Shown here: in pieces, positions 5,976 to 58,062 of the stretch
Layout: the number at the start of each line of letters is the position of its first letter
How positions within the stretch are numbered: the first letter of the stretch is position 1
Assembly (NCBI GenBank): GCA_964344965.1
Contig: CAYFPJ010000001.1
Span: 86,771 to 150,770, forward strand
Origin: an uncultured Gammaproteobacteria bacterium
GTDB lineage: Bacteria > Patescibacteriota > Patescibacteriia > Magasanikbacterales > UBA922
Direction: 5' to 3'
Length of the DNA stretch: 64,000 nucleotides
The notes under the pieces: model-generated
Database searches by the model: none
Told to the model about the DNA's origin: nothing
What the model saw: the letters and a program-made list of their open reading frames with translations, nothing else
Translations under genes and position numbers: made by a program

Positions 5976-6056
5976 TGTCATTCTGAGTGAAACGAAGAAT
6001 CTGTATTCAGGAAGACACCCTCTATAAGAAAGATCCTTCGCTGCGCTCAGGATGAC
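5976..6056. repeat. family B palindromic element (GTCATYCTGAGYG...AGATCCTTCGCTGCGCTCAGGATGAC)
   Basis: Imperfect inverted repeat; its arms match those at 21605-21685, 30190-30313 and 14908-14936. Confidence 0.6.
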
Positions 6057-6059
6057 AAA

Positions 6060-7001
6060 CTATAGATCATTCACCGATTTCACACTCTCATTGTTATGAA
6101 TTCTCTTGATCACTTCGGCAAATCTACTGGTGACAGATACTATCTCTGTGTCTCGCAGATTATGTCTGGCAATCGGAATGGTGTCTGTGGTGAGGAATTT
6201 TCTAATTGGTGAAGCATTCAATTTTTCTCCTGCCCCTTCACCAAGGTTGGCATGGATAAAGCAGGCATCAACACTCTTTGCTCCTGCTGTTTCTAATAAA
6301 TATTTAGCATCTTCGATTAAAGTCCCGCCACTGAGAGTCTCATCGTCTATGATGAGACATTTTTTTCCTTTCACATCACCAAGGACGCTTTTTATTTTTA
6401 CTTTTTCATCATTCCCAACTCTTCTTTTGTCCATCATGGCTATTGGTAGATGCAGGCTGTCAGCGTAGGGCTCTACTAGCTTGGCAGCTCCACTATCTCC
6501 AGCCACCAAGATATAGTTTTCCATATTACTATTTTCTTTTATATATTTCGTAATGTCTGGGGCGGCAATCAGATGGTCGCAAGGGATATTGAAGAAACCA
6601 TGGAGCTGAGGAGAATGCATCTCCATAATGATAACTCGATTGGCTCCAGCAGTCTGGAGCATGTCAGCCATTAGTTTGCCAGTGATACAGATTCTGGGCT
6701 GATCCTTCTTGTCTGATCTTGAGTAAGGGAAGTAGGGGAGGACAGCTGTGATTCTCTTGGCTGAAGCATCACGAAGCGTACGGATATAGATAAGAAGTTC
6801 CATGATATGGGCGTCGACTGGAGGAGTGTGAGATTGAATGACAAATACATCATCGCCGCGCACTGGTTCATCTACTGTGATGAATCTGTTTTCATTACTG
6901 AAGGTGAAAGATGTGGTCTTAGTTTCTTCTATGCCAAGATGCTCGCATATTTTTTTGGTGAATTGTTTGTGACTTGATCCTCCTATGATTTTGAGTGACA
7001 T
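6060..7001 (-). CDS. prs: ribose-phosphate pyrophosphokinase (PRPP synthetase)
   Basis: 313 aa with a PRTase-type fold and an N-terminus MSLKIIGGSSHKQF that matches the Prs family. Confidence 0.88.
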   Translation of the reverse strand: MSLKIIGGSSHKQFTKKICEHLGIEETKTTSFTFSNENRFITVDEPVRGDDVFVIQSHTPPVDAHIMELLIYIRTLRDASAKRITAVLPYFPYSRSDKKDQPRICITGKLMADMLQTAGANRVIIMEMHSPQLHGFFNIPCDHLIAAPDITKYIKENSNMENYILVAGDSGAAKLVEPYADSLHLPIAMMDKRRVGNDEKVKIKSVLGDVKGKKCLIIDDETLSGGTLIEDAKYLLETAGAKSVDACFIHANLGEGAGEKLNASPIRKFLTTDTIPIARHNLRDTEIVSVTSRFAEVIKRIHNNESVKSVNDL

Positions 7002-10161: not shown

Positions 10162-11203
10162 AAATTTTCCAATTTGGATTGGCTTCTATATCTTGCCACT
10201 TGGTGAAATTTTTATTTTTGGCATGGTGATAAGAGGCAACGGCGATCATGGCGGCGTTGTCCATGGCATATTTTAAGTTCGGAGCCAATAGTTCATAGCC
10301 AATAGTTTTTGTTTTGTCTTCCAGACTTTGGCGAAGTTTCTTATTAGCACTGACGCCGCCGGCGAGGATGATTGTTTTGGGGCTGTATTTTTGGGCGGCT
10401 TTGGTGGTTTTCTCGACAAGGACGTCGGTGATGGCTTGCTGGAAGCTGGCGCAGAAGTCTGGCAAGTTCGGAGCCAATAGTTCATAGTCAATAGTTTTTT
10501 TCTTTGCATTGTCTTGGAGCCAATATAAAGCAGCAGTCTTTAGGCCGGAGAAGCTCATGTCGAAGTTTTTGGAATTTATCATTGGTCTTGGAAAGTTTAT
10601 TGTCTCTGGATTTCCCTCTGTGGCGAGTTTGGAAATTTTTGGACCACCGGGATATTCGAGACCAAGTAGTTTTGCCACCTTATCAAAACATTCTCCAGCA
10701 GCATCGTCACGAGTGCCACCGACCTTTTCATAATTACCTTGTTTTTTGGAGAGGATTAACTCTGTGTGTCCTCCGCTAACAATTAAAGATAGTGCAGGAT
10801 ATTCAAATTGATTTTTGATTTTTGATTTTTGATTTAGGATTTGAACAGAGTGTATATGTCCTTCAATATGATTAACTCCAATCAGAGGTACTTCCCATAG
10901 GTATGACAGTGTCTTTGCCGCCTCAACTCCCACAATCAAACCTGTGATTAGTCCAGGACCAGAAGTGACAGCGATAAGATCTGGTTTTTTTACTCCTGCC
11001 TTTGAAAGCACCTCCTCAACAAGGGGAATAATCTTCTCAGCATGTTTCCTGCCAGCAATTTCTGGTACGACACCACCATATTTTTTGTGTACTTCAATTT
11101 GACTAGCTGTCAGTTCAGCTAGGATTTCAATTTTGTCATCAGTTATTTCTACGAGAGCGACAGATGTATCGTCACAAGAACTTTCTATTCCTAGTATTTT
11201 CAT
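10154..11203 (-). CDS. tsaD: tRNA N6-adenosine threonylcarbamoyltransferase
   Basis: MKILGIESSCDDTSVALV N-terminus and a C-terminal GGVSAN...DNAAMIA motif typical of Kae1/TsaD. Confidence 0.88.
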   Translation of the reverse strand: MKILGIESSCDDTSVALVEITDDKIEILAELTASQIEVHKKYGGVVPEIAGRKHAEKIIPLVEEVLSKAGVKKPDLIAVTSGPGLITGLIVGVEAAKTLSYLWEVPLIGVNHIEGHIHSVQILNQKSKIKNQFEYPALSLIVSGGHTELILSKKQGNYEKVGGTRDDAAGECFDKVAKLLGLEYPGGPKISKLATEGNPETINFPRPMINSKNFDMSFSGLKTAALYWLQDNAKKKTIDYELLAPNLPDFCASFQQAITDVLVEKTTKAAQKYSPKTIILAGGVSANKKLRQSLEDKTKTIGYELLAPNLKYAMDNAAMIAVASYHHAKNKNFTKWQDIEANPNWKIYE

Positions 11204-13715: not shown

Positions 13716-13729
13716 ACTGATCAGTTTTT

Positions 13730-13810
13730 ATCTGTCTAATCTGTTAGATCTGTGTTCTATTTAATTACACCATTTAGATAGAACACGGATTGAACTGATC
13801 TAACTGATTT
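13730..13810. repeat. family C palindromic element (TAGATCTGTGTTCTAT...ATAGAACACGGATT)
   Basis: Inverted repeat; related copies lie at 49760-49864 and 57841-57920. Confidence 0.6.
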
Positions 13811-13819
13811 GAACGGATT

Positions 13820-14830
13820 TTATTTACTCAGCTCCATCATGCGATCCAAAGCCAATTTTGCTTTTTGTAGAATTTCATCAGGAATATCAACAATTTGTTT
13901 TTTGTGAGGATTTTTCAGAGCCATTAGGACTTGCCCGAGATTAATCTGCTTCATGAAGGGGCAGAGCTGACAAGTGCCAACTATTTGCTTGTTTGGGAAT
14001 TCTGTCTTTACTCTATCAGTGATCCCACATTCGGTGATGAGCATGTAGTTGTCAGCTGGATTTTCTTTTACATATTTGAGCATGTCAGCTGTACTTCCGA
14101 CGAGATCTACAGCGTCAGTGACTGATGAAGTACACTCATAGTGAGCTAAGATGTGAGTTCCAGGATATTTCGTTCGTATATCATCTATGGCTTGCTTGTC
14201 AAAGCGTTCATGCACAATGCAAGTCCCATGCCAGAGGATTAATTTCTTCTTGGTTCTCTTTTGTAGATTTTCTCCCATCAGTTTGTCGGGAATGAAGATC
14301 ACTTCGTCTTCTTCAAATGATTCAATAATTTTGAGAGCATTGGAGCTGGTACAACAGACATCACTTTCAGCTTTCACTTCTGCGCTAGTGTTGACATAGG
14401 TCACTACTGGTACGCCTGGATATTTCTTTTTCAATTCTCTTACATTTTCAGCAGTAATACTCTCAGCTAGAGAACAGCCAGCGACGTCTGGGACTAGGAC
14501 TTCTTTTTCCGGACTAAGTATCTTGGCAGTTTCTCCCATGAAGTGTACCGAGCAAAAGATTATTTTTTTAGCGCTGTGTTCGGCGGCAATCTTGCTGAGA
14601 CCATAAGAATCTCCCACAAAATCAGCAATACCATACATGATATCTGGAGTTTGGTAAGAGTGGGCGAGAATGATAGCGTCTTGCTCTTTTTTGAGCTCAT
14701 TAATTTCCAGGGTCATGTGGGCTATCAAACCACAGTCTTCGAGAGACCAGTTGACGTTTTTTAGTTTTTCGTATAGTCGATTGGTTTCTGCTTTGATTTT
14801 TTCTGGTGAATATTTCATAATTTCTGTCAT
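13820..14830 (-). CDS. nadA: quinolinate synthase
   Basis: 336 aa with the cysteine-containing motifs of the NadA family. Confidence 0.88.
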   Translation of the reverse strand: MTEIMKYSPEKIKAETNRLYEKLKNVNWSLEDCGLIAHMTLEINELKKEQDAIILAHSYQTPDIMYGIADFVGDSYGLSKIAAEHSAKKIIFCSVHFMGETAKILSPEKEVLVPDVAGCSLAESITAENVRELKKKYPGVPVVTYVNTSAEVKAESDVCCTSSNALKIIESFEEDEVIFIPDKLMGENLQKRTKKKLILWHGTCIVHERFDKQAIDDIRTKYPGTHILAHYECTSSVTDAVDLVGSTADMLKYVKENPADNYMLITECGITDRVKTEFPNKQIVGTCQLCPFMKQINLGQVLMALKNPHKKQIVDIPDEILQKAKLALDRMMELSK

Positions 14831-14907
14831 TCTGAACGAAGTGAAGAATCTTTCTTAAGTTGTTTTTTATTTGTAAATAATATAGTGGTTTAAAAGGTTC
14901 TTGGTAG

Positions 14908-14936
14908 AAAAGATCCTTCGCTACGCTCAGGATGAC
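14908..14936. repeat. family B half element (AGATCCTTCGCTACGCTCAGGATGAC)
   Basis: A single arm of the family B palindrome. Confidence 0.5.
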
Positions 14937-15403
14937 AATTCTAGGCTATTCTTTTTAGTCCATGGTGCATGTTGTTGCCATAATGAGTTATTATTTTTTA
15001 TCATCTTACGCAGTTCTGTTCCAGAAATATTAATATTAATCTTAATCTTTTTTACATTATATCCTTTTTCTTCAAACAAACCCGCTACCCATTCATTACC
15101 AGTATAGACTACATCAAAACTTCCAACGATCTTCACCACATGGTCGATCCAATTTTTTTCGTCATGAATATCTGGAATGGCAAGTATTTTGTAATTTAAA
15201 TTTTGATCTTGAAGAGATTTTTCAATCATTTCTTTTCTTTCTTCAAAAGTCCAGGGATTTTCATCAGTATCGCTATACTGTGAACTACCAACTCCAATAA
15301 TTATTTCGTCTTCTGAAATTTGTTTCAAGGCATCGAGGTGGCCGAGATGGAAGGGTTGGAAGCGGCCGATGAAGAGGACTTTTTGCATAGACACAGATTG
15401 CAC
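14927..15403 (-). CDS. nicotinamide/nicotinate mononucleotide adenylyltransferase, archaeal NadM-like
   Basis: 158 aa with a FIGRFQPFHLGH nucleotidyltransferase motif; it sits inside the NAD biosynthesis operon. Confidence 0.75.
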   Translation of the reverse strand: MQSVSMQKVLFIGRFQPFHLGHLDALKQISEDEIIIGVGSSQYSDTDENPWTFEERKEMIEKSLQDQNLNYKILAIPDIHDEKNWIDHVVKIVGSFDVVYTGNEWVAGLFEEKGYNVKKIKININISGTELRKMIKNNNSLWQQHAPWTKKNSLELSS

Positions 15404-16307: not shown

Positions 16308-16379
16308 GGCCCCATCGTCTAGTGGTTAGGACACCAGGTTTTCATCCTGGGAACAGGGGTTCGATTCCCCTTGGGGCTA
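16308..16379 (+). tRNA. tRNA-Glu (anticodon UUC)
   Basis: Cloverleaf folded by hand: acceptor GGCCCCA / TGGGGCT, anticodon stem CCAGG / CCTGG with loop TTTTCAT, T-arm GGGG TTCGATT CCCC. The 5' end resembles E. coli tRNA-Glu. Confidence 0.85.
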
Positions 16380-21604: not shown

Positions 21605-21685
21605 TGTCATCCTGAGCGCAGCGAAGGATCTTTCTTGTAGAGGACTTCTTCCTTACTAAAGATCCTTCGCTGCGCTCAGGATGAC
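21605..21685. repeat. family B palindromic element, full copy
   Basis: GTCATCCTGAGCGCAGCGAAGGATCTTT ... AAAGATCCTTCGCTGCGCTCAGGATGAC. Confidence 0.7.
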
Positions 21686-21696
21686 ATACGATTTAT

Positions 21697-24689: not shown

Positions 24690-24690
24690 G

Positions 24691-24860
24691 ATAATTTACA
24701 ATTTATAATTTTCAATTTAAAAACAATTTTTAATTTATAAATTTATAATGTTACAAATTTGTCGCTCACTTCGACGAGTTATGTTTTGTGGGTTTTATAA
24801 ATTTAAAATTGAGTCATTAGAAATTGTTTAAAAATTTCAAATTGAAAATTATAAATTTTT
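24691..24860. repeat. family F AT-rich MITE-like element (TIR AATTTACAATTTGAAATTTTTAAACAATTT / AAATTGTTTAAAAATTTCAAATTG...)
   Basis: About 30-bp terminal inverted repeats. Copies lie at 26918-27080, 32616-32776 and 46978-47260. Confidence 0.65.
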
Positions 24861-24864
24861 TACC

Positions 24865-25251
24865 ATGTATTTACTTATCAACATGTCAGAGAAGGACCAA
24901 ATTCATTTGGCTCTTTTTGATGAACAAAATAGAGAAGACAAGACCTACGAAGGTCGCAATCGAGAACTTCTAGCTTCGATTGATGATTTTTTGAGTACCA
25001 AAAATTTGAACAAAGAAAGTGTTCGAGGGATAATGGTCGTAGTGGGAGCTGGCAGTTTCACAAGTACCAGAATCGTGTGTGTGGTCGCCAATACTTTTGC
25101 ATACGTTCGGCAGATTCCACTTTTGGCTATTTCAGTGGAAGACTTTGATAATATTCAAGATTTGATTCCTAAGCTGTTACAACAGAAACCAGGTAATTAC
25201 ATTTCAGCAGAATATAGTGGGGAGCCGAATTTGGGTAATAAAAAGGAGTAA
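24865..25251 (+). CDS. tsaB: TsaB/YeaZ-like protein, N-terminal domain only (tRNA t6A biosynthesis partner)
   Basis: IMVVVGAGSFTSTRIVCVVANTFA matches the TsaB GPGSFTGLRIG region. It is 128 aa, so truncated relative to canonical TsaB. Confidence 0.6.
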   Translation: MYLLINMSEKDQIHLALFDEQNREDKTYEGRNRELLASIDDFLSTKNLNKESVRGIMVVVGAGSFTSTRIVCVVANTFAYVRQIPLLAISVEDFDNIQDLIPKLLQQKPGNYISAEYSGEPNLGNKKE

Positions 25252-26641: not shown

Positions 26642-26917
26642 ATGAACAACCTCCACCTCACTATCCACGGCCAAGTCCAAGGAGTTTTCTTTCGTCAGAC
26701 AGCTTGTGAAAAGGCAAGTGAGCTTGGCCTGACTGGCTGGGTAAAAAATAATCCAGACGGAACAGTGGAGATCGTGGCTGAAGGCAGGGAGCAAGACTTG
26801 AAAAAATTGTTGGAATGGTGTAAAGAAGGACCGGAGTATGCTCATGTTGAGAGGGTTGTGGAGGAGTGGCGAGATGTGGAGGAGAGGAAGTTTGAGGAGT
26901 TTAGAGTAATGTATTAA
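26642..26917 (+). CDS. acyP: acylphosphatase
   Basis: VQGVFFR...GWVKNNPDGTVEIVAEG signature; 91 aa. Confidence 0.85.
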   Translation: MNNLHLTIHGQVQGVFFRQTACEKASELGLTGWVKNNPDGTVEIVAEGREQDLKKLLEWCKEGPEYAHVERVVEEWRDVEERKFEEFRVMY

Positions 26918-27080
26918 TTTGAAATTTACAATTTGAAATTTTTAAACAATTTTTAATTTATAAATTTATAATGTCACAAATTCACTTTTCACTCCGAAGA
27001 GTTATGTTTTGCAGGTTTTATTAATTTAAAATTCAGTCATTAGAAATTGTTTAAAAATTAAAAATTTCAAATTAAAAATT
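26918..27080. repeat. family F MITE-like element
   Basis: Same TIRs and core (TTATAAATTTATAATGTCACAAATT ... AGTCATTAGAAATTGTTTAAAAATT) as the copy at 24691. Confidence 0.65.
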
Positions 27081-28574
27081 GTGTTAACTGATTACCAACG
27101 CTACCGTCTCTACGAAATCCTCCCCGGTCTCTCTATTTGGGGTACTTTGATATTGGCTATTTTTCTCTCATTTGTGAAGCCTTTATGGATGATTTATTTT
27201 ATCATCATCTTTGATATTTACTGGGTTTTGAAAGTAATTAATTTTTCTTTTTATTTGATAGTGGCTTGGAGCAGATTTCGACAGACCAGAAGGATTGATT
27301 GGAAAGATAAAATCAAACATGAATTAACAAACTATCAAGATAAATATCACCTAGTTTTCCTCACACTATATAATGAGGAGTGGGAAGTGGTAGAAACTGC
27401 AGTCGATAGTATTGCCAAGGCTGTCTATGATCGAGACAAGTTTGTCATCGTGGTGGCTGGCGAAGAACGGAAGAAAGAACACTATCAAAATATCTTGAGT
27501 CATATCAAGAATAAATTTTATAATAATTTCCATGATATTGTGGGAGTTTGTCACCCGAGTGACTTGCCGGACGAGATCCCAGGCAAGGGGTCCAATCTCC
27601 ACTATGCCGAACGAGAAATGAAAAAATACATTGATGAAAGAGATTGGAATTATGACAAAATAATTACCACTATTTTTGATATCGATACTGTCTGTCATCA
27701 CCAGTACTTTGCTTATCTTACTTATCTGTACTGCACTCACCCCAATCCAACCCGCAGCTCTTATCAACCAATCGCAGTCTACAACAACAACATTTGGGAT
27801 TCTCCAGCAGTACTCAGGATCATGGCTTTTGGTACCACCTTTTGGATGCTCACTTCTCTTGCCAGACAAGATGCTCTTGTCACTTTCTCTTCTCACTCTA
27901 TGAGCTTCCGAGCGATAGTCGATGCTGGATTTCATGAGAAGCGAATTGTCAGTGAAGACTCCAGAATTTTTTATCAATGCTTACTTGCTTATGATGGTAA
28001 CTATGAAGTAACACCAATGTACTTGCCAGTATCCATGGATACTGTTCGTGATGACAAGTGGAAAAAAAGTATTAAAAATCTCTACAATCAACAAAGGCGT
28101 TGGGCCTGGGGAGTAGAGCATGTTCCATATCTGCTCTGGGAATTTCGCAAAAAAGGAGAGTCTATTCCACTTTGGAAAAAGTTCAAATGGGTTTTCATCG
28201 AATGGGAAGGGAAGTGGTCTTGGTGTTTGATCGCTCTTCTCATTACTGTCCTTGGTCAATTACCGCTATGGGTGGCTCCAGAATCAGTTAGGCAGAGCGC
28301 CTTGTTTTTCAATGCTCCGCACATGTTGCAGATTCTCATGACTAGCGCCATGCTAGGGCTTGTACTTTCTGCTATACTGAGTTTACCACTTTTGCCACGA
28401 CGTCCAGAGTCACATCCTCGACACAAGTACGTGATCATGGTTTTGCAGTGGGTTCTTTTGCCAATCTCTCTAATATTTATTAGTGCTATCCCGGCAATCG
28501 ACGCTGTTACTCACATGATGAGGGGTAAGTATTTGGGATTCAATGTTTCGCAGAAGAAGCGTCTTAGGCACTGA
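27081..28574 (+). CDS. family 2 glycosyltransferase, processive type (cellulose/chitin synthase-like), membrane-bound
   Basis: QQRRW motif (NLYNQQRRWAWG), multiple TM segments and a GTG start. Confidence 0.7.
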   Translation: MLTDYQRYRLYEILPGLSIWGTLILAIFLSFVKPLWMIYFIIIFDIYWVLKVINFSFYLIVAWSRFRQTRRIDWKDKIKHELTNYQDKYHLVFLTLYNEEWEVVETAVDSIAKAVYDRDKFVIVVAGEERKKEHYQNILSHIKNKFYNNFHDIVGVCHPSDLPDEIPGKGSNLHYAEREMKKYIDERDWNYDKIITTIFDIDTVCHHQYFAYLTYLYCTHPNPTRSSYQPIAVYNNNIWDSPAVLRIMAFGTTFWMLTSLARQDALVTFSSHSMSFRAIVDAGFHEKRIVSEDSRIFYQCLLAYDGNYEVTPMYLPVSMDTVRDDKWKKSIKNLYNQQRRWAWGVEHVPYLLWEFRKKGESIPLWKKFKWVFIEWEGKWSWCLIALLITVLGQLPLWVAPESVRQSALFFNAPHMLQILMTSAMLGLVLSAILSLPLLPRRPESHPRHKYVIMVLQWVLLPISLIFISAIPAIDAVTHMMRGKYLGFNVSQKKRLRH

Positions 28575-28710: not shown

Positions 28711-30198
28711 ATGTTTTTTAGAAGAAAGAAAAAATCTAGTATTTGGAAATGGCTGTTTGGTTCTTGTTTAATTGTGGTTATTTCTTTTGCAATTTTTAGT
28801 TACTATGCCTTGCGTGATTTTGATTTGGCCACTGTGATTGATAATGATTTTGTAGAAGAGGTAATTCGGGCTGAGCTAAGTGAAGACCAAGGTGAAATTT
28901 TGGATATATTGCCGATAGTTTTGGGATTTACAGAGCCCAAGACTTACTTATTCCTTTTCCAAAACAACACAGAATTAAGACCAGGTGGAGGGTTTATTGG
29001 TGTCTATGCAGTTGTGGAAGTGGATAGAGGAAGTATGGAAATTGTTGAAGTTGAGGGGAGTGGAATTTTGGACAAAAGAGCTTCAAAAGATCTTTTACAG
29101 CCCCCACCTGAACCAGTCGGAGAATATCTGGGTGTCGACAGGTGGTATTTCCGTGACAGTAATTGGTCTCCAGACTTCGAAGAAAGTGCCAAAAAAGCTC
29201 TTGAGTTTTATAAAATTGAAGATGGGGTGAAAGCAAATGAAATTGATGTTGTGGTCGGAATTACCCCAACAGTTTTAGAAAGATTAATGAAAATTACAGG
29301 TGACTTCACTATTGAAGGTGTAGATTTTACTACTGAAAGTGTGACAGAGACTCTAGAATACGAAGTAGAATATGGTTATAAAGAAAAAGGAATTGTTTTT
29401 GAGGAGAGAAAAGCTATCATAAGACCATTTATGGAGGCACTTGTGAAAAGAGTGAAAGACACTTTGTTTGAAAATTATGAAAAATATTTTGATACCTTAC
29501 TAGATCTTGCTCATGAAAAACATTTGGTTTTCTTTTCCAAGACAGATGATCTCCAATTTTTGTTAGATCAGTTTGATTTGTCTGCAAACGTATTTGATAC
29601 AGAGGGCGATTATTTACTTTGGGTAGATGCCAATCTTGGTGCTTTAAAAACTGATCATGCTATGGACAGAACTTTGGACTATACTCTGTCCAAGCGTCCA
29701 GCTGCTCATGAGAGTGAATCAGATCGCTATCTTGCTTCGGCTACTATGGAATATGATCATCAGGGTACTTTTGATTGGCGGACTAGTCGCTATCTGACCT
29801 ATGCCAGAGTCTATGTGCCAAAAGGTTCAAAGCTGGTGTCTGTAGTTGGTAAAAAGAAAAATGGACAAGATATAAAATTGGAAGAAGTGGATAGCGGTGA
29901 AGAGCTTGGCAAACAATGGTTTGGGACTTATTTTTCAGTTGAGCCAGGTAACAAAAAATTATTATCATTTATTTATCAGTTACCATCAAATATAAAAGAA
30001 AATATTGATAGTAATAACTATAATTTAACCATTCAAAAACAACTTGGCACGGTTGATCACAGATTGACGCTCCACCTTGATTTTGGTAAGCTTATTCAGT
30101 CTGCAAATCCGGCTGAGTCAGAAGAAAAATGGGGCGATACTACTTATGAATACGAAGGTGACCTGAGGTTGGATCGGGAGTTTAATATTTCATTCTGA
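28711..30198 (+). CDS. DUF4012-like membrane-anchored protein
   Basis: N-terminal TM, then NTELRPGGGFIGVYAVVEV, which resembles the DUF4012 core. This family is often found beside glycosyltransferases. Start set at the ATG at 28711. Confidence 0.55.
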   Translation: MFFRRKKKSSIWKWLFGSCLIVVISFAIFSYYALRDFDLATVIDNDFVEEVIRAELSEDQGEILDILPIVLGFTEPKTYLFLFQNNTELRPGGGFIGVYAVVEVDRGSMEIVEVEGSGILDKRASKDLLQPPPEPVGEYLGVDRWYFRDSNWSPDFEESAKKALEFYKIEDGVKANEIDVVVGITPTVLERLMKITGDFTIEGVDFTTESVTETLEYEVEYGYKEKGIVFEERKAIIRPFMEALVKRVKDTLFENYEKYFDTLLDLAHEKHLVFFSKTDDLQFLLDQFDLSANVFDTEGDYLLWVDANLGALKTDHAMDRTLDYTLSKRPAAHESESDRYLASATMEYDHQGTFDWRTSRYLTYARVYVPKGSKLVSVVGKKKNGQDIKLEEVDSGEELGKQWFGTYFSVEPGNKKLLSFIYQLPSNIKENIDSNNYNLTIQKQLGTVDHRLTLHLDFGKLIQSANPAESEEKWGDTTYEYEGDLRLDREFNISF

Positions 30199-30313
30199 GC
30201 GCAGCGAAGAATCTTTCGGAGTCAATACACTTACATCATACAAATAATATATGTATATTGAATATTATTCACTCCGAAAGATCCTTCGTCGTCCTTTGGG
30301 ACTCCTCAGGATT
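30190..30313. repeat. family B palindromic element, degenerate
   Basis: TCATTCTGAGCGCAGCGAAGAATCTTTCGGAG ... CTCCGAAAGATCCTTCGTCGTCC. Confidence 0.55.
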
Positions 30314-30324
30314 ACAAATAATTT

Positions 30325-31403: not shown

Positions 31404-32615
31404 ATGAAAACAAACTTTGATTCAATTGAGGATGCTGTCCGTGCTATAAAAGATGGAGAGGTGGTAATTATCGTCGATGACGAGGGTCGGGAGAATGAGG
31501 GAGACCTAGTAATGGCGGCCGAGTACGTCACAGAAGAGCAAATGGCTTTCATCATCCGTCACACTGGCGGAGTTGTTTGTCTTGCAGTGGAAAACGATCT
31601 AGCCGACAGATTGGATTTACCACCGATGGTGGTCAAAAATACTTCCAAATTAGAGACTGCTTTCACAGTCAGCATCGAGGCTAAAGAGGGGACGACCACA
31701 GGTATTTCAGCTCAGGATCGAGTAACGACCATCAAGGCTGCCATTGCTGATGACGCTAAGCCAGATGATTTGTCTCGTCCTGGCCATGTTTTTCCACTGC
31801 GAGCCCAGCATGGTGGTGTGCTTTGGCGCGGGGGGCACACCGAAGCTTCGGTTGATCTCTGCAATTTGGCTGCCGTCAAGCCGGCTGCGGTGATAAGTGA
31901 ACTTATGGATGATGATGGTAAGATGATGCGTCTACCAGAGTTGCTTAAATTCGCCGAAGAACACAATCTGGCGATTGTCTCAGTAGCTGACCTGATTGCT
32001 CACAGACACAAGAATGAATCCTTCATCGAACTGGCGGCAGAAACAGACTTGCAGACCAAGACCGGAATCTGGCAAATGAAAGTCTATAAGGACTTGCTTC
32101 ATGGTACTCTCCATACTGCTTTAGTCAAAGGAGATGTCAGTGGCGATCAATCAGTTCTAGTTCGTGTTCATTCAGAATGCTTCACTGGTGATGTGCTCGG
32201 GTCTCTTCATTGTGATTGTGGGCAGCAGTTGTCAAAAGCAATGGCTGATATCGAAAAAGAAGGTTCAGGAATTATTCTCTATATGGAGCAAGAGGGAAGA
32301 GGGATTGGATTGGTTAATAAAATAAAAGCTTATCAGCTCCAACACAAAAAAGGTCTTGATACGGTGGAAGCCAATTTGGCTCTTGGTCTACCAGAAGATC
32401 TCCGTGAATATGGAATAGGAGCGCAGATTATCAAGGATCAGGGAGTACGCAAGATTCGTCTCATGACAAATAATCCTAAGAAGATGGGGGGAATTACAGG
32501 TTATGGAATAGAAGTTGTCGAGCAAGTTCCGATTGAGATTCCAGCCAATGGAGTGGATGATAAATATTTGCAGACTAAGAAGGAGAAGATGGGGCACGTG
32601 TTGAGTAATTTTTAA
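31404..32615 (+). CDS. ribBA: bifunctional 3,4-dihydroxy-2-butanone-4-phosphate synthase / GTP cyclohydrolase II
   Basis: RibB and RibA domains are both present; the GTP cyclohydrolase half has CxCGxQL zinc ligands. Confidence 0.9.
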   Translation: MKTNFDSIEDAVRAIKDGEVVIIVDDEGRENEGDLVMAAEYVTEEQMAFIIRHTGGVVCLAVENDLADRLDLPPMVVKNTSKLETAFTVSIEAKEGTTTGISAQDRVTTIKAAIADDAKPDDLSRPGHVFPLRAQHGGVLWRGGHTEASVDLCNLAAVKPAAVISELMDDDGKMMRLPELLKFAEEHNLAIVSVADLIAHRHKNESFIELAAETDLQTKTGIWQMKVYKDLLHGTLHTALVKGDVSGDQSVLVRVHSECFTGDVLGSLHCDCGQQLSKAMADIEKEGSGIILYMEQEGRGIGLVNKIKAYQLQHKKGLDTVEANLALGLPEDLREYGIGAQIIKDQGVRKIRLMTNNPKKMGGITGYGIEVVEQVPIEIPANGVDDKYLQTKKEKMGHVLSNF

Positions 32616-32776
32616 TTTATAATTTAAAATTTTTAAACAATTTTTAATTAATAAATTTACAATGTTACAAGTTTAATACTTGCTTTGACATACTGTATTT
32701 ATAAGTTTTGTACATTAAAAATTAAATCATTGTAAATTGTTTTCAAATTAAAAATTTCAAATTGTAAATTTTCAAT
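32616..32776. repeat. family F MITE-like element
   Basis: Shared TIRs; the central part diverges. Confidence 0.6.
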
Positions 32777-43051: not shown

Positions 43052-43297
43052 ATGTCAGAAAGAGACAGAAGAAGGAGAGGTAGAAGAAGGACTGGTGACC
43101 AGCCCGCATCTCCTGAACAATCAGTAGTGGAAAGACAAGAGTCTTGGTTTGATGCATTTGAAAAAAAACACAAAGAAAATATCAGACAAGCAATACTTGA
43201 AAAATACGATGTGTTTGAAGAATTTGAAAATGTGACCCCCGTTGAATCTTTAAGCGGTTTTATTCCTCGATGCTTGCATCGAAAAAGTGAAAACTAA
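43052..43297 (+). CDS. hypothetical small Arg-rich protein
   Basis: 81-aa ORF; its last 50 nt fall inside the 145-bp direct repeat. Confidence 0.3.
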   Translation: MSERDRRRRGRRRTGDQPASPEQSVVERQESWFDAFEKKHKENIRQAILEKYDVFEEFENVTPVESLSGFIPRCLHRKSEN

Positions 43298-43389
43298 CAT
43301 TGGTTGAAATAAGATTTTCTGCCAATACCCCGCAGCTTGCTGCGGGGATGGCCCGATGAAGTCTTACTTAAACCAAATTTACTTTTATT
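43245..43389 (+). repeat. 145-bp direct repeat, copy 1 (identical to 47019-47163)
   Basis: Base-by-base comparison shows identity across all 145 nt. It contains the hairpin CCCCGCAGC ttgc TGCGGGG. Confidence 0.85.
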
Positions 43390-45005
43390 TTCAAGGGGAT
43401 ATAAAAGGTCGGGTGGTTGATATTATTCTGGAGAGAGAATTAGCTTTCTGTCGTCATTTGTTTGATAGACTGGAAGACATAAATAATAGACTAAGAACTA
43501 GTCAAGAGGATTTGTCGCCAGATGATTCTGATTCACATCTGGTATTACAATTCAATACTTCCATGCTCTATGATGTAGATGAAACTTTGTATACGAAATG
43601 TTTCTCAAAAGGTGTTATTCGTCCTAGTGCCAGAATTATTTTGCAATCTCTTCACGAAGATTATGGTGTTATTAATGGTATTGTTACTACTAGAAATGAT
43701 GATGTAGTAAGAAGGCAGTTGGCAGGAGAATATAGAGAAAACAATATAGATGATATATCAGAATATATAGATAATCAATATGTGTATGGTATGCCAGGCA
43801 CTGTTTCATTTGATCTTAGCGGGCTTCGTATAGATACACTATTGGGCCAATATGACATAGAATCTCCGAGATTGGGTGTATTTTTACCAGGGACTAGATA
43901 TATTTCTCCAGAAGATGCGTGGAGAGAATCTGTTGAAGCAGTAGAGGGTGTAAGTATAGAAGGATTAGAAGAATTATTGTCCAGTCAAAGTGGACTGGAT
44001 ATGTATACCAAGTCTTTGAAAAGAGGTTTTTATGGAAAATTATTTAGAGAAAATCCCGACATGCCAATGCTAGATGATTTAGAAGAGAGATATTTGAAAT
44101 ATCTGGAAGAACAGGCACGGCACCTTCAACGTTATTTGGACGAACAAAAGGCAGAAATAGACGAAGCAGATATTGGTGAAAAATGGGATAAATTATTTCA
44201 ATTTTTTCAGTATGATAATACCATATTCACCGATGACGGCAGGGATCCTGTGTTGCCAGATTTCCTAGATGCAGAAAAATTGGGGATTCTCCGTGAATTG
44301 TTTTTAGTTTTTGGTAAGGAAGATAAAGAGCTTGTGGATTATTTTGACAGTCCAGAATTAGCTCAGGAGTTTTGGGAAACAATAGGTAAGAGACTATATA
44401 ATTATCTCCTTACTAATTATGCAGAATTCAATTTTGGAGGATCTCTTGCGCAACCAGAAAAAGTTCTAGAAGATATTAAAGATAAAATAAAGGCACGTGC
44501 CAACAAATTTTCAGAATCTGACTTTTTTGTTAAATTGGACATGATGGGTAGAATAATTGATAGAGAGGAATGGAGTCATGAGATGATAAAAGTGATAACT
44601 TCTCATCGCAAAATTGTAAAAAAATACGAGGACAATAATGTCGAAGCATACAGAGATTTGTTTGTTGGTTTGTCTAAACTATTTGGGATAAATATAAAAA
44701 AAAGAAAAAATGAAATAAATTTATCTATTGTTTTTTGGAAGCTTATCCAGGCAAAAAATGCTATTGATAACAGTGGAGATGACAATGTGGTGGTATCTAT
44801 TGCTATAGATAATGAAGAGTTGGCCGAAAAATTTTATGAGTTACTTAGCGGGAAAATAGAAGATGAAGATGGTGTGGTTGATGGCTATGCGATGTTTGGT
44901 CTAGATGATCCTAAGTATCGGGATAAGGTTTATTTGATTTCGTGTGGAAAACGAGGAGTATTTTCTGAAAAGGAAATTAAAAAGGAATTGCAACAAGCTG
45001 CCTAA
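43356..45005 (+). CDS. hypothetical 549-aa protein with N-terminal HAD-like DxDxT motif
   Basis: MLYDVDETLYT matches HAD motif I and GIVTTRN resembles motif II; the long C-terminal region is unassigned. The first 11 codons lie inside the direct repeat. Confidence 0.5.
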   Translation: MKSYLNQIYFYFQGDIKGRVVDIILERELAFCRHLFDRLEDINNRLRTSQEDLSPDDSDSHLVLQFNTSMLYDVDETLYTKCFSKGVIRPSARIILQSLHEDYGVINGIVTTRNDDVVRRQLAGEYRENNIDDISEYIDNQYVYGMPGTVSFDLSGLRIDTLLGQYDIESPRLGVFLPGTRYISPEDAWRESVEAVEGVSIEGLEELLSSQSGLDMYTKSLKRGFYGKLFRENPDMPMLDDLEERYLKYLEEQARHLQRYLDEQKAEIDEADIGEKWDKLFQFFQYDNTIFTDDGRDPVLPDFLDAEKLGILRELFLVFGKEDKELVDYFDSPELAQEFWETIGKRLYNYLLTNYAEFNFGGSLAQPEKVLEDIKDKIKARANKFSESDFFVKLDMMGRIIDREEWSHEMIKVITSHRKIVKKYEDNNVEAYRDLFVGLSKLFGINIKKRKNEINLSIVFWKLIQAKNAIDNSGDDNVVVSIAIDNEELAEKFYELLSGKIEDEDGVVDGYAMFGLDDPKYRDKVYLISCGKRGVFSEKEIKKELQQAA

Positions 45006-46715: not shown

Positions 46716-46809
46716 CAATTGACCTTTGACAATTAACAATTAACTTTTTTGAAAAAGCTACATGACAATTAGTCAATTGTCAAAAGTTAAATGTTAATTG
46801 TAGCATTAT

Positions 46810-46830
46810 GCCAACTTAGATCAGCTGGTC
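46810..46830 (+). pseudogene. duplicated 5' fragment of tRNA-Thr (GCCAACTTAGATCAGCTGGT) followed by the GC hairpin CCGCCTACGCTGAAGCTTCGGCGG
   Basis: Matches the first 21 nt of the tRNA at 46900 with one mismatch; there is no T-arm. Confidence 0.6.
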
Positions 46831-46899
46831 CGCCTACGCTGAAGCTTCGGCGGATAAATGCCGCAATCGTTTTGTTCTTTCAATTATTATACAACACAT

Positions 46900-46975
46900 G
46901 CCAACTTAGCTCAGCTGGTAGAGCAATGGTTTTGTAAACCATCGGTCCGGGGTTCGAGTCCCCGAGTTGGCTCCA
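46900..46975 (+). tRNA. tRNA-Thr (anticodon UGU), CCA encoded
   Basis: Acceptor GCCAACT/AGTTGGC, D GCTC/GAGC, anticodon stem ATGGT/ACCAT with loop TTTGTAA, T-arm CGGGG TTCGAGT CCCCG, discriminator T, then CCA. Confidence 0.85.
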
Positions 46976-46977
46976 CG

Positions 46978-47260
46978 ATAATTTACAATTTGAAATTTTT
47001 AATTTGAAAACAATTTTAAATCTTTAAGCGGTTTTATTCCTCGATGCTTGCATCGAAAAAGTGAAAACTAACATTGGTTGAAATAAGATTTTCTGCCAAT
47101 ACCCCGCAGCTTGCTGCGGGGATGGCCCGATGAAGTCTTACTTAAACCAAATTTACTTTTATTGATTTAATTTTTTAATTTTAAAATTTGTTTAGTCCAT
47201 TGAATAATTAAAAATTAAGACATTGTTTAAAAATTTCAAATTGTAAATTATAAATTTAAC
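46978..47260. repeat. family F MITE-like element interrupted by copy 2 of the 145-bp direct repeat (47019-47163)
   Basis: Left TIR at 46978-47018 and right portion at 47164-47260. The inserted segment is identical to 43245-43389. Confidence 0.6.
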
Positions 47261-47265
47261 AATAC

Positions 47266-47333
47266 GGGTCGGTACTCAAGCGGTCAACGAGGGCAGACTG
47301 TAAACCTGCCTGCCGGCAGGTCTGCTAGAGTAC
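47266..47333 (+). pseudogene. tRNA-Tyr-like 5' fragment with a GC hairpin (CCTGCCTGCCGGCAGG) inserted after the anticodon loop; no T-arm
   Basis: GGGTCGGTACTCAAGCGGTCAACGAGGGCAGACTGTAAA parallels the 5' half of the real tRNA-Tyr at 47344. Confidence 0.55.
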
Positions 47334-47343
47334 TAACTAAAAT

Positions 47344-47426
47344 GGGTCGGTAGCGAAGCGGTCAAACGCAACAGACTGTAAATCTGTCGGTATATACCTT
47401 CGAAGGTTCGAATCCTTCCCGGCCCA
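47344..47426 (+). tRNA. tRNA-Tyr (anticodon GUA) with long variable arm
   Basis: Acceptor GGGTCGG/CCGGCCC, anticodon stem ACAGA/TCTGT with loop CTGTAAA, variable arm CGGTATATACCTTC, T-arm GAAGG TTCGAAT CCTTC, discriminator A. Confidence 0.85.
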
Positions 47427-47499
47427 CACAGGAAGACACTGCCAAATTGGTGGTGTTTTTTATATTTTTTTCTTGCAAAACAATTCAAAATGGTGTTTA

Positions 47500-47694
47500 A
47501 TATATGTGCTAAAAAGAAGATGGTGCTCGTTGTTGGTCGGTCTTATCAGATATTGGTCGATGGTCTGGTTACTACTCAACAACGTTCGTTCCCGATTAGA
47601 TCGGGACATCTATCTTCTTGGGAGGTTAAAATAAATTTTAATCAAAAAAGCTTTTCAAGCCTTTTAGGCTTTTTCAGCTTTTCAAGCTTTTTTT
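47500..47694 (+). promoter_or_regulatory. structured leader upstream of metK (candidate SAM-responsive element; class not assignable)
   Basis: Long-range helix CGTTGTTG...CAACAACG encloses CTTATCAGATATTGGTCGATGG, which echoes the CUUAUCA of SAM-I. It is followed by the hairpins CCCGAT tag ATCGGG and AAGCC tttt AGGCTT followed by a T-run. Confidence 0.3.
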
Positions 47695-49759: not shown

Positions 49760-49864
49760 TTAGGTAATAGAACACGGGCCTTCGGCACACGGATTCAACG
49801 GATATGAACGGATTTAATACGTGTCAATCCGTTGAATCCGTGTCATCCGTGTTCTATTACCTAA
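49760..49864. repeat. family C palindromic element (TTAGGTAATAGAACACGG ... CCGTGTTCTATTACCTAA)
   Basis: Nested inverted repeats with ACGGATTCAACGG / CCGTTGAATCCGT inside. Confidence 0.65.
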
Positions 49865-51038: not shown

Positions 51039-51154
51039 GTCATTGCGAGGAGAGAGTCGGAGCCAAAGCGAAGAAGAACGACGTGGCAATCTCATCGTTT
51101 TTACACAAAACCCATGAGATTGCCACGTCGTTCTTTCAGACTCCTCGCAATGAC
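51039..51154. repeat. family A MITE-like element
   Basis: TIR GTCATTGCGAGGAG / CTCCTCGCAATGAC with an internal inverted repeat ACGACGTGGCAATCTCAT / ATGAGATTGCCACGTCGT. Confidence 0.7.
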
Positions 51155-51183
51155 GAAATAGTTAGCGGATTTTATAATCTATA

Positions 51184-52708: not shown

Positions 52709-52747
52709 ACCAAAGTTTATCTTGAACTATAGAAAACTACAACTTTC

Positions 52748-52843
52748 GTCATTGCGAGGAGCGACGAAGGAGCGATCTATCTCATTGTTTTCTCTACTAC
52801 CACTGAGATTGCCACGTCGTTCTTTCAGACTCCTCGCAATGAC
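52748..52843. repeat. family A MITE-like element
   Basis: Same TIRs and orientation as the copy at 51039-51154. Confidence 0.7.
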
Positions 52844-52860
52844 GAATTAATTTTGAAAAT

Positions 52861-52895
52861 AAAAAAGCGCTGTGAATGCAGCGTTTTTGTTTTTG
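52861..52895. terminator. bidirectional terminator hairpin (AAAAAAGCGCTG tgaa TGCAGCGTTTTTG)
   Basis: An A-run, a hairpin and a T-run between cca (+) and the minus-strand RNA gene cluster. Confidence 0.6.
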
Positions 52896-52902
52896 TGTTG
52901 TG

Positions 52903-53035
52903 TGGACCGGCCCGGTTCGCACACTCTCTTCCGGAAGGATAGGTACTCCTTCGAGGGCGCCCCTCCCCCTTGGGAGAACCTGGGTTTGAGAGTGGCGAAC
53001 CGGTCCGGTCTGGTTACCGGAGGCGGGGTCATATC
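52903..53035 (-). ncRNA. GC-rich structured element of unknown identity (candidate small RNA)
   Basis: Long-range pairing GACCGGACCGGTTCGCCACTCTC / GAGAGTGTGCGAACCGGGCCGGTC on the minus strand encloses about 60 nt containing a TTCCGGAAGGA motif. There is no ORF, and GC is far above the local average. The strand is uncertain. Confidence 0.35.
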
Positions 53036-53042
53036 TATGCTA

Positions 53043-53116
53043 TGTGTGCGACAGGATTCGAACCTGCGACCTCCCTCATACCAAGAGGGCGCTCTATCCG
53101 CTAGAGCTACGCACAC
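53043..53116 (-). tRNA. tRNA-Thr (anticodon GGU)
   Basis: Minus strand: acceptor GTGTGCG/CGCACAC, D GCTC/GAGC, anticodon stem CCCTC/GAGGG with loop TTGGTAT, T-arm GCAGG TTCGAAT CCTGT, discriminator A. Confidence 0.8.
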
Positions 53117-53147
53117 AAACATGATGACCCCGCCTCAACGGCGAGTA

Positions 53148-53254
53148 TTGCGGGGGCAGGAGTCGAACCTGCGAGCCCTTGGAGAGTCTCGGTTTTGAAT
53201 CTCCAAGGCACCGGGTCATGAACCCGGCGGCCAAACCAGCTGGCGTTCCCCGCG
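53148..53254 (-). tRNA. initiator-like tRNA-Met (anticodon CAU) with an approximately 31-nt hairpin inserted in the variable region
   Basis: Minus strand: 5' CGCGGGG ... CCCCGCA A 3' as in E. coli tRNA-fMet, including the C1xA72 mismatch. Anticodon stem CCGGG/CCCGG with three G-C pairs and loop TTCATGA. T-arm GCAGG TTCGACT CCTGC. The extra hairpin CCTTGGAGA ... TCTCCAAGG lies between the anticodon and T arms. Total length is 107 nt. Confidence 0.55.
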
Positions 53255-53303
53255 ACAACTGGCTTTTACCCTAGCGATATCTCTCATTTTTGTCAAGTAT
53301 AAT

Positions 53304-57840: not shown

Positions 57841-57920
57841 ATAGAACACGGATTAAACGGATCGAACAGATAAAAACAGATCAGTTCAGATCAGTTTAAT
57901 CCGTTAGATCTGTGTTCTAT
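57841..57920. repeat. family C palindromic element (ATAGAACACGGATTAAACGG ... CCGTTAGATCTGTGTTCTAT)
   Basis: Read directly. Confidence 0.65.
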
Positions 57921-57922
57921 AA

Positions 57923-58062
57923 TTTTATAACTAACTAAAAATATGCCAAAAATATTAGGAATCTTCCTACGCTCTCCGCTGCGCTCCGAGCTTCGGAAGG
58001 ACAAGTCGACTTTAATTATAACTAACTAAAAAATATGCCAAAAATATTAGGAATTGATTTAG
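57923..58062 (+). repeat. duplication of the dnaK ribosome-binding site and first seven codons (two copies about 92 nt apart) flanking a GC-rich hairpin insert
   Basis: TTATAACTAACTAAAAATATGCCAAAAATATTAGGAAT at 57923-57962 and again at 58015-58056, with the insert CTTCCTACGCTCTCCGCTGCGCTCCGAGCTTCGGAAGG between them. The upstream copy opens a 27-codon ORF ending TAA 6 nt before the dnaK ATG. Confidence 0.7.

Follow-up and report, generated by a model that had tools for sequence, protein, structure and literature searches.

Truncated 5' copies of tRNA genes in a Magasanikbacteria genome as possible relics of GIY-YIG endonuclease cassettes

Partial tRNA-Thr and tRNA-Tyr copies upstream of metK

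A stretch of 64,000 nucleotides (nt) of contig CAYFPJ010000001.1, referred to here as the window, was analyzed for partial 5' copies of tRNA genes (stubs) that lie directly upstream of intact tRNA genes. By its MetK homologues the window groups with Candidatus Magasanikbacteria (Patescibacteria/candidate phyla radiation), the nearest other genomes showing ~90% MetK identity, and its metK is of the bacterial type. Four tRNA genes were called in the window by ARAGORN and Rfam: tRNA-Glu at 16308, tRNA-Thr(UGU) at 46900-46975 (plus strand, 71.1 bits), tRNA-Tyr(GUA) at 47344-47427 (plus strand) and tRNA-Thr(GGU) at 53042-53117 (minus strand). The second and third of these belong to the gene order M16 peptidase-TIM-TPR protein-tRNA-Thr-tRNA-Tyr-metK, which is kept in the relatives L084/L103, L087 and L089 (labels of the type L0xx to L1xx denote fetched relative or metagenome loci, and P0121, P0131 and P0141 denote GIY-YIG proteins). 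An earlier note on this DNA had proposed that real tRNA genes are each preceded by a duplicate of their own 5' half joined to a GC-rich hairpin. A stub precedes tRNA-Thr(UGU) and tRNA-Tyr but neither tRNA-Glu nor tRNA-Thr(GGU), that is, two of the four genes. At the two affected genes it is indeed the 5' end that is duplicated and not, as is usual for such fragments, the 3' end; the matches (21/22 for Thr, 75% for Tyr) are far beyond chance, and the GC-rich hairpins lie at the positions given.

The tRNA-Thr(UGU) stub (plus strand) consists of two collinear parts and a GC-rich palindromic module between them. Part A (46808-46829, ATGCCAACTTAGATCAGCTGGT) comprises a 2 nt flank and tRNA positions 1-20, and 21 of its 22 nucleotides are identical to 46898-46919. 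The module (46829-46862, plus strand; TCCGCC-TACGCTGAAGCTTC-GGCGGA-TAAAT(GCC), with the layout T-CCGCC-TACGCTGAAGCTTC-GGCGG-A and then TAAATGCC) stands in for AGA at the D-loop position. Part B (46863-46875, plus strand, GCAATCGTTTTGT) covers the 3' strand of the D stem to the anticodon, positions about 24-36, and matches 46923-46935 (GCAATGGTTTTGT) at 12 of 13 nucleotides. The hairpin therefore interrupts the copy instead of merely following the copied start, as had first been thought. The copy stops directly after the anticodon, between positions 36 and 37, and is separated from the real gene by an AT-rich 24-nt spacer (46876-46899, plus strand). The intact tRNA-Thr(UGU) gene is identical to those of L084 and L089, and a promoter-like site ends at 46806, immediately 5' of the stub. 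The stub was called by neither ARAGORN nor Rfam. A simple tandem duplication was ruled out, as the match covers just 22 + 13 nt out of a unit of 90 nt, and a metagenome pattern search for two tRNA-Thr 5' 20-mers spaced 45-75 nt apart gave no match.

The tRNA-Tyr stub (47257-47322, plus strand) carries 9 nt of native flank, tRNA positions 1-44 (D arm and anticodon arm with GTA), a hairpin and the TC of the T stem. Identity between 47261-47308 and 47339-47386 is 75%. The copy extends past the anticodon arm and a variable-arm-like 11-nt hairpin (CTGCCGGCAGG, 47310-47320, plus strand) to 2 nt into the T stem. A hairpin does lie within the sequence CCTGCCTGCCGGCAGG, which the earlier note had taken for an insert, but this sequence overlaps the anticodon arm, the variable-arm-like hairpin and the start of the T stem. 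The spacer TGCTAGAGTACTAACTAAAAT (47323-47343, plus strand) leads from the stub to the intact gene; its 5' part and the preceding TC (47321-47322) form base pairs with stub sequence (TCTGC/GCAGA and GAGTAC/GTACTC), and its 3' part is weakly like the 3' end of a GIY-YIG gene in L142 (about 11/14 by eye). The fold of 47266-47343 has -30.9 kcal/mol (z = -3.68), and 0 of 200 shuffles were equally stable. ARAGORN made no call for this stub, and Rfam gave no match even at E-values up to 10. Both the Thr and the Tyr stub are without T arm and 3' acceptor strand, and neither forms a complete cloverleaf. That the fragments might be halves of split or permuted tRNAs had also been considered; this found no support, since an intact gene adjoins each stub, the host is bacterial and the window holds no complementary hairpin partner.

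Contrary to what had been supposed, the Tyr stub was not copied from the start of the tRNA-Tyr gene next to it. It is identical to the functional tRNA-Tyr of L087 at 42 of 45 positions versus 36 of 45 for the adjacent intact gene. Stub and intact gene differ by changes that are paired and fall in the variable arm and in the stems of the D and anticodon arms; in the intact gene, these three elements are unlike both the stub and the relatives. The flank upstream of the stub is identical to the L084 flank at 34 of 35 positions (read by eye). Because the stub is closer to L087 than to its neighbor, a recent in situ duplication cannot give this pattern, and a simple tandem duplication was ruled out for Tyr as well. 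Judged by these alignments, the Tyr stub is the ancestral 5' part of the gene, and the 5' two-thirds of the working tRNA-Tyr came from elsewhere. Co-conversion from a donor would be consistent with this pattern; no donor was found, and a viral scan with the variant tRNA-Tyr D arm returned just ordinary phage tRNA-Leu and tRNA-Tyr genes.

The duplicated dnaK start and the GC-rich inserts

The start of dnaK is duplicated likewise around a GC-rich insert; a dnaK duplicate had been mentioned in the earlier note. A copy of the dnaK leader and the first 21 coding nt (57916-57962, plus strand; matching 58017-58054 and absent from L103) is followed by a 46-nt insert (57963-58008, plus strand, CTTCCTACGCT...AGCTTCGGAAGGACAAGTCG) and by the second leader copy with the real dnaK start (58009-58054, plus strand, ATG at 58035). 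The repeat 57916-57962/58009-58054 has a 26-nt exact core in a ~38-nt block with one A indel, and this core makes the duplication a recent one. In L103 the HSP20-dnaK spacer is clean, with 51 nt and no duplicated dnaK start, and the syntenic tRNA locus of L084/L103, L087 and L089 carries clean single-copy tRNAs without stubs. From these single clean tRNAs and the clean dnaK start it follows, at the level of sequence comparison, that the duplications of the window are lineage-specific events. A MetK scan of genome contigs retrieved one close relative, which lacks the tRNAs. An assembly artefact was ruled out, since all three sites are identical in contigs from five sequencing runs and two assemblers (MEGAHIT and Logan, ERR2281800-05), the sole difference being one single-nucleotide polymorphism in L111, which falls within the intact tRNA-Thr gene (46925).

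The inserts have short motifs in common. The pair CCTACGCT..AGCTTCGG occurs twice in the window, in the Thr and dnaK inserts with different 5-bp stems, where 0.00 occurrences were expected from shuffles. Isolated CCTACGCT or AGCTTCGG elsewhere in the window all lie in coding sequence and were dismissed as chance. Each hairpin as such occurs once in the 64-kb window, with up to 3 mismatches allowed; related motifs are found in other genomes. The motif CCTGCCTGCC..GGCAGG is also common to different inserts, and ACAAG is common to the dnaK insert and L122 hairpins. At L122 731-790, just 5' of an open reading frame (ORF) start, a GC hairpin (CCTGCCTGCCGGCAGACAAG) of the type seen at the window's Tyr stub lies between 13-nt direct repeats (TTTAACTTTATAA). 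Of the 132 GC islands that stand in AT-rich surroundings, just six have flanking repeats of at least 12 nt, and five of these six are gene-start or tRNA-stub sites. The starts of the inserts mirror the ends of the duplicated blocks in inverted form (TAGGAA-TC-TTCCTA at dnaK, CCTGCC-TGCC-GGCAGG at Tyr). For the Thr and dnaK regions the predicted fold was no more stable than that of shuffled sequence, and at permissive thresholds Rfam held no family for any stub, hairpin or insert.

These inserts could be tiny non-autonomous GC-rich palindromic elements that enter highly transcribed, promoter-proximal DNA in AT-rich genomes such as these and create, or survive only within, a duplication of the 5' segment, with no endonuclease involved. 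The exact dnaK core around its GC-rich insert, the repeat around CCTGCCTGCCGGCAGACAAG in L122, the concentration of repeat-flanked GC islands at gene starts and stubs, the motifs in common and the other palindromic repeat families of the window would all fit such an element, and direct repeats do flank the hairpin at dnaK and at L122 731-790, as the target-duplicating element suggested in the earlier note would require. Inside the tRNA stubs, on the other hand, the hairpin sits within the copy: tRNA sequence resumes past it and no target duplication is found at it. That every hairpin is single-copy in 64 kb also speaks against this element, which would moreover leave unexplained a native-type stub beside a foreign-type tRNA-Tyr and the GIY-YIG genes at the site (see below). 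We regard it as improbable, though as the foremost of the rivals; if it were true, the element would be a mobile palindrome whose target duplications are unusually long. Alternatively, template switching during replication or repair in a repair-poor genome could have produced the stubs as neutral by-products without any selfish element, the hairpins being filler or snap-back sequence. Small ectopic copies in the window (148 nt, 43242-43389 to 47016-47163, and a 41-nt in-frame copy in tsaD) and the inverted block ends at the dnaK and Tyr inserts are what such events would leave. The two Tyr copies differ in origin, which is against it, and it appears somewhat less probable still. As the dnaK and L122 hairpins lie between direct repeats, both the palindromic element and template switching stay alive as explanations. 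Break-repair or a hairpin process, the same one that lies behind the stubs, probably gave rise to the dnaK duplication as well.

Other repeats and structures were observed around these sites. An AT-rich ~170-nt element family with inverted-repeat ends is found in intergenic positions (24690-24880, 26913-27095, 32604-32771 and 46977-47257, as well as L084 3485-3610 and L142 1335-1437) and includes the tRNA-Thr/tRNA-Tyr spacer. Of the two copies of the 148-nt segment, which are 99% identical, the one at 47016-47163 forms the center of this AT-rich palindromic element in the spacer, and metagenome contigs break at the 148-nt repeat. The segment takes in the end of a DUF2164-like gene (56 nt), a spacer with the hairpin CCCCGCAGCTTGCTGCGGGG and the start of a 549-aa ORF (34 nt). 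This ORF (43356-45005, plus strand) lies between the DUF2164 gene and TIM, is absent in L087 and L089, and had no Pfam, PHROG or PADLOC match, and thus gave no evidence of a recombinase or nuclease. Three more palindromic intergenic repeat families (TGTCATCCTGAGCGCAGCGAAGGATC..., TCGTCATTGCGAGGAGCGACGAAGG... and ATAGAACACGGATT...) were found, one of them directly 5' of the dnaK duplication; their sites fall into a first group (5976-6063, 14827-14938, 21605-21692 and 30190-30324), a second (2296-2400, 51099-51163 and 52746-52852) and a third (13716-13818, 49813-49857 and 57841-57920). In tsaD (minus strand) a 41-nt segment is present at 10275-10315 and 10464-10504, 189 nt apart, encoding in frame KTIDYELLAPNL and KTIGYELLAPNL. 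The metK leader (ATGGTGCWCGTTGTTGG...CAACAAYGTYCG) is conserved between the window (47520-47640), L084 (3755-3830), L087 (3865-3925), L089 (2370-2440) and L088 (335-400) and looks riboswitch-like, yet it has no Rfam match at E-values up to 10.

On the minus strand, just upstream of tRNA-Thr(GGU), an initiator-tRNA-like gene was noted at 53140-53262, for which ARAGORN and Rfam are silent. Its features are the C1:A72 mismatch, an anticodon stem with three G-C pairs, a CAU anticodon, A8 and G37, as well as a 32-nt hairpin (CCTTGGAGA...TCTCCAAGG) at the variable-loop position; it would be a dead copy that took up a hairpin, or else an unusual tRNA. Downstream of tRNA-Thr(GGU), a GC-rich region of ~130 nt at 52900-53035 (minus strand) is apparently structured and has no Rfam match. 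The block 52709-53303 is entirely missing from L103.

Stubs and GIY-YIG cassettes in other Patescibacteria

Stubs of tRNA-Thr are recurrent at the TPR-tRNA locus. Among 28 related loci, obtained from a metagenome scan with the neighboring TPR protein and inspected by script and by hand, tRNA-Thr 5' stubs upstream of the intact gene were present in L116, L119, L121, L122 (two), L125, L130, L132, L136 and L140 (two), which represent at least eight other Patescibacteria lineages. Every one of these stubs except that of L125 carries a GC-rich palindromic insertion, located between tRNA positions 7 and 8, 9 and 10, 13 and 14 or 19 and 20. As in the window, tRNA sequence continues for 9-20 nt past the insertion in most stubs, and in several cases the stub ends in or near the anticodon loop. 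No comparable stub was found upstream of 51 viral (phage) or 16 other-bacterial tRNAs in the fetched DNA, and no endonuclease gene was found alongside the recurrent tRNA-Thr stubs. In L116 the stub is clade-typical in sequence and the intact tRNA-Thr has a different acceptor stem, a pattern which, on sequence grounds, points to replacement and not to simple copying. The recurrence of stubs at one tRNA locus across lineages, with orthologous conserved inserts, is a further point against template switching without a selfish element.

In L119 (3404-3563), L121 (3412-3579), L132 (3342-3501) and L136 (3316-3419) the 5' stub is that of tRNA-Thr(GGU) and harbors at its D-loop position a GC-rich structured insert of ~100 nt. 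This insert is orthologous and 79% identical across genomes whose TPR proteins are ~52% identical, and RNAalifold predicts 41 pairs, 10 of them with compensatory changes. It has no Rfam family, and a viral scan was also empty. A T-box, to which GGGUGG and UGGA had pointed, was ruled out, as L121 has AGGA and no Rfam T-box match was obtained. The insert is a candidate for a new structured RNA, and its conservation shows that a stub can be kept under selection. All stubs and hairpins might by extension be functional leader RNAs or small RNAs that regulate processing or transcription or act as tRNA-half decoys, and for the window the fold of the Tyr stub with its spacer and the promoter-like site before the Thr stub would agree with such a role. 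The window's stubs are recent, however, with the dnaK copies retaining their exact core, and they match no Rfam family. Since they are absent in near relatives and only the Tyr region folds beyond shuffles, a functional role of the window's stubs is unlikely, and we give the leader-RNA explanation little credence.

L125 differs from the other loci. The segments 3394-3437, 3585-3872 and 3930-4700 hold a tRNA-Thr(GGU) that is split directly after the anticodon, between positions 36 and 37, by an intervening sequence of ~240 nt without Rfam match, with a 5' stub (positions 1-38) ahead of it and a tyrosine-recombinase-like ORF behind it. An integrase next to tRNA-Thr(GGU) would suit the idea that stubs are scars of tyrosine-integrase islands at a 5'-type attachment site, the island interior having been deleted later. 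A minority class of such islands has the layout seen here, with a displaced 5' fragment that lies upstream of the tRNA gene and on its strand, and anticodon-centered crossovers, as would be matched by the end of the Thr stub, are common (PMC4383910). Against this, the intervals of 68 nt (Thr) and 23-34 nt (Tyr) hold no ORF or integrase, three independent near-total deletions would be required, the hairpin breaks the supposed core, dnaK is no tRNA gene (tDNA), and the whole gene is replaced in L116. Of all the explanations considered, this one is the least probable, and we consider it very unlikely.

At the tRNA-Tyr gene, an endonuclease gene accompanies the stub in relatives. In L114 and L142-L145, Magasanikbacteria with the same synteny, a Tyr stub, a GIY-YIG ORF and the intact tRNA-Tyr lie in this order between tRNA-Thr and tRNA-Tyr. 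The stub has a 16-nt hairpin (TCCCGCCACGGCGGGA) in place of CAGACTG of the anticodon arm and ends in the variable arm; the ORF of 80 aa corresponds to the GIY-YIG catalytic domain (PF01541, E = 2e-17), and the intact tRNA-Tyr begins 4 bases on. Such 80-aa GIY-YIG genes beside hairpin-disabled Tyr copies are located at L142 1439-1830, L150 1-812, L151 1201-1640 and L146 1501-1842. Stub-nuclease units are arranged in tandem in L146, L148 and L150, and in L150 a second, different GIY-YIG gene follows 3' of the tRNA, and then a 3' partial tRNA-Tyr. In L151/L152, which come from another genomic neighborhood, the order is nuclease, stub with a homologous hairpin (TCCCGCCATCGGCGGGA), 44-nt AT-rich spacer and intact tRNA-Tyr. 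The stub of L151/L152 ends 3-4 nt into the T stem, and the breakpoint of the window's Tyr stub matches it. Between tRNA-Thr and tRNA-Tyr the cassette is thus present in L142 and absent in L084, L087 and L089, with the stub alone in the window.

The cassettes also have a hairpin module in common with the window's Thr stub: the combination of a TCC(C)GCC stem and GGCGG(G)ATAAAT was found just in cassette Tyr stubs and in the window's Thr stub within the 1.05 Mb of fetched sequence that was compared, which a template-switching origin without cassettes does not account for. In the cassettes TAAAT is part of the tRNA-Tyr anticodon loop, whereas it is without tRNA-Thr counterpart in the Thr stub, so that this piece would be of Tyr-cassette origin. 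This suggests that part of a Tyr cassette stub may have been copied into the window's Thr stub. N- or C-terminal extensions of several GIY-YIG homologues look like translated tRNA (P0131, tRNA-Thr; P0141, tRNA-Glu), so that these gene calls would reach into tRNA fragments, although the matches are weak (E 0.07-0.5, and 11 aa at E 0.21).

Possible cassette relics and their relation to known systems

The stubs of the window may be relics of break and repair by free-standing GIY-YIG cassettes whose nuclease has since been lost, a reading to which we assign an even chance. A tRNA gene would be broken by a small free-standing GIY-YIG endonuclease cassette, and repair off a cassette-bearing template, with slippage or template switching, would yield a truncated 5' copy, the cassette and a regenerated complete gene whose 5' part can derive from the donor. 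Later deletion of the nuclease gene, as the end of a course of invasion, decay and loss, would leave stub, short spacer and intact gene, as found in the window. The GC-rich palindromic module would be cassette-associated sequence that lies inside the stub and disables it. The past cassette in the window, the cutting of tRNA genes by the 80-aa nuclease and the exact route of repair are steps that we infer. The cassette-relic model would account for the position and breakpoint of the Tyr stub, for a native-type Tyr stub beside a foreign-type working gene, for the cassette-type hairpin module in the Thr stub and for the recurrence of stubs at the locus. With regard to the template switching named in the earlier note, recombination or template switching would still be involved, while the agent is probably a homing-type nuclease cassette and not the hairpin.

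Several observations weigh against the cassette-relic model. No GIY-YIG gene or remnant was detected in the window (tblastn with 62 proteins, best E = 0.06), and the likeness of the Tyr spacer to the 3' end of a nuclease gene is weak. The Tyr stub of the window retains its anticodon and is without the cassette hairpin there, and no nuclease-bearing counterpart was found for tRNA-Thr stubs or dnaK. The match of the GGCGGATAAAT module is short, with about 0.1-0.5 chance matches expected in the searched DNA. GC hairpins with flanking direct repeats exist without tRNA or nuclease at dnaK and at L122 731-790, and the model leaves these two sites unexplained, neither being near a tRNA or nuclease gene. 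The 80-aa proteins are a bare GIY-YIG domain without DNA-binding domain, which makes site-specific cleavage putative, and for independent deletions it is odd that a single genome should hold three scars so close in size (78, 90 and 92 nt). It is the lack of a nuclease remnant in the window, together with a specificity of the 80-aa protein that is only predicted, that holds our confidence in the cassette-relic model at this middle level.

A wider proposal is more tentative and, in our estimate, clearly less probable than the relic model itself: Patescibacteria may harbor a selfish cassette consisting of an 80-aa GIY-YIG gene in tRNA genes together with a hairpin-disabled copy of its target, cycles of which would leave stubs and drive unusually fast compensatory turnover or exchange of tRNA-Tyr and tRNA-Thr, and one clade may have exapted a stub with its covarying ~100-nt domain as a structured leader RNA of the tRNA-Thr(GGU) operon. 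The cassette type and the recurrent stub pattern are apparently unreported. Their parts are known: both tRNA gene fragments and, at tRNA genes, homing elements of the free-standing GIY-YIG type have been described; here they are found in Patescibacteria chromosomes. If true, elements of the homing-endonuclease type would parasitize single-copy essential tRNA genes of ultra-small bacteria, a parasitism so far documented experimentally only for phage tRNA clusters. This would account for 5' tRNA fragments that island-finding tools and tRNA finders would misread or miss, would suggest how tRNA-Tyr diverges so rapidly, stem by stem, among close Magasanikbacteria, and would give annotation a simple rule (stub, hairpin, intact tRNA, in that order). 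It would also provide two testable objects: the 80-aa nuclease, whose predicted target is a tRNA gene, and the conserved ~100-nt RNA candidate in the tRNA-Thr stub.

Several known systems resemble the window in part. Repetitive extragenic palindromic (REP) elements of bacteria and the GC clusters in the mitochondrial DNA of yeast are imperfect palindromes, short and rich in GC, that are scattered in AT-rich non-coding DNA, some with short flanking repeats. In comparison, the repeats of the window are long and variable (12-47 nt) or absent, and the hairpins are present in one copy each, inside dead tRNA copies. The split tRNAs of Nanoarchaeum are alike in having GC-rich sequence behind the 5' portion of a tRNA; unlike them, the window is bacterial, has the complete gene adjacent and no complementary partner, and shows different break points. 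SXT/R391 integrates at the 5' end of prfC and brings the gene a new one. The point in common with the window is that incoming DNA replaces the 5' end of a gene, the old 5' piece being left upstream; SXT/R391, however, is a large element that carries an integrase, targets a protein-coding gene and leaves no hairpins.

Island-borne tDNA fragments are mostly 3' fragments, with a 5' minority of 159/3919, and the minimum island in Islander is 2 kb and integrase-bearing (PMC4383910). The stubs resemble this 5' class in the displaced 5' fragment upstream of a regenerated tRNA and, for Thr, in the end in the anticodon region. They differ from it in that there is no integrase or island, in the interval of 23-68 nt versus the 2 kb minimum, and in the interruption of the fragment by a hairpin.

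The closest comparison is with SegB of phage T4, a GIY-YIG endonuclease encoded in the tRNA cluster, which recognizes a conserved T-loop motif of tRNA genes and promotes the inheritance of itself and of neighboring tRNA genes, a case of intronless homing (PMC2330249). In phage T6, SegB drives a recombination-dependent tandem amplification of a unit of tRNA-Tyr and segB (PMC13096335). The present case is unlike SegB in its setting, a cellular Patescibacteria chromosome, in the bare catalytic domain of 80 aa, in the hairpin-disabled partial copy of the target at the cassette, and in that the window is without a nuclease gene, which was lost, if it was ever present. It is like SegB in that the GIY-YIG gene of the relatives' cassettes lies directly against tRNA genes, in that its presence varies at one locus, in the tandem tRNA-nuclease units, and in flanking tRNA sequence of differing origin, as co-conversion would give.

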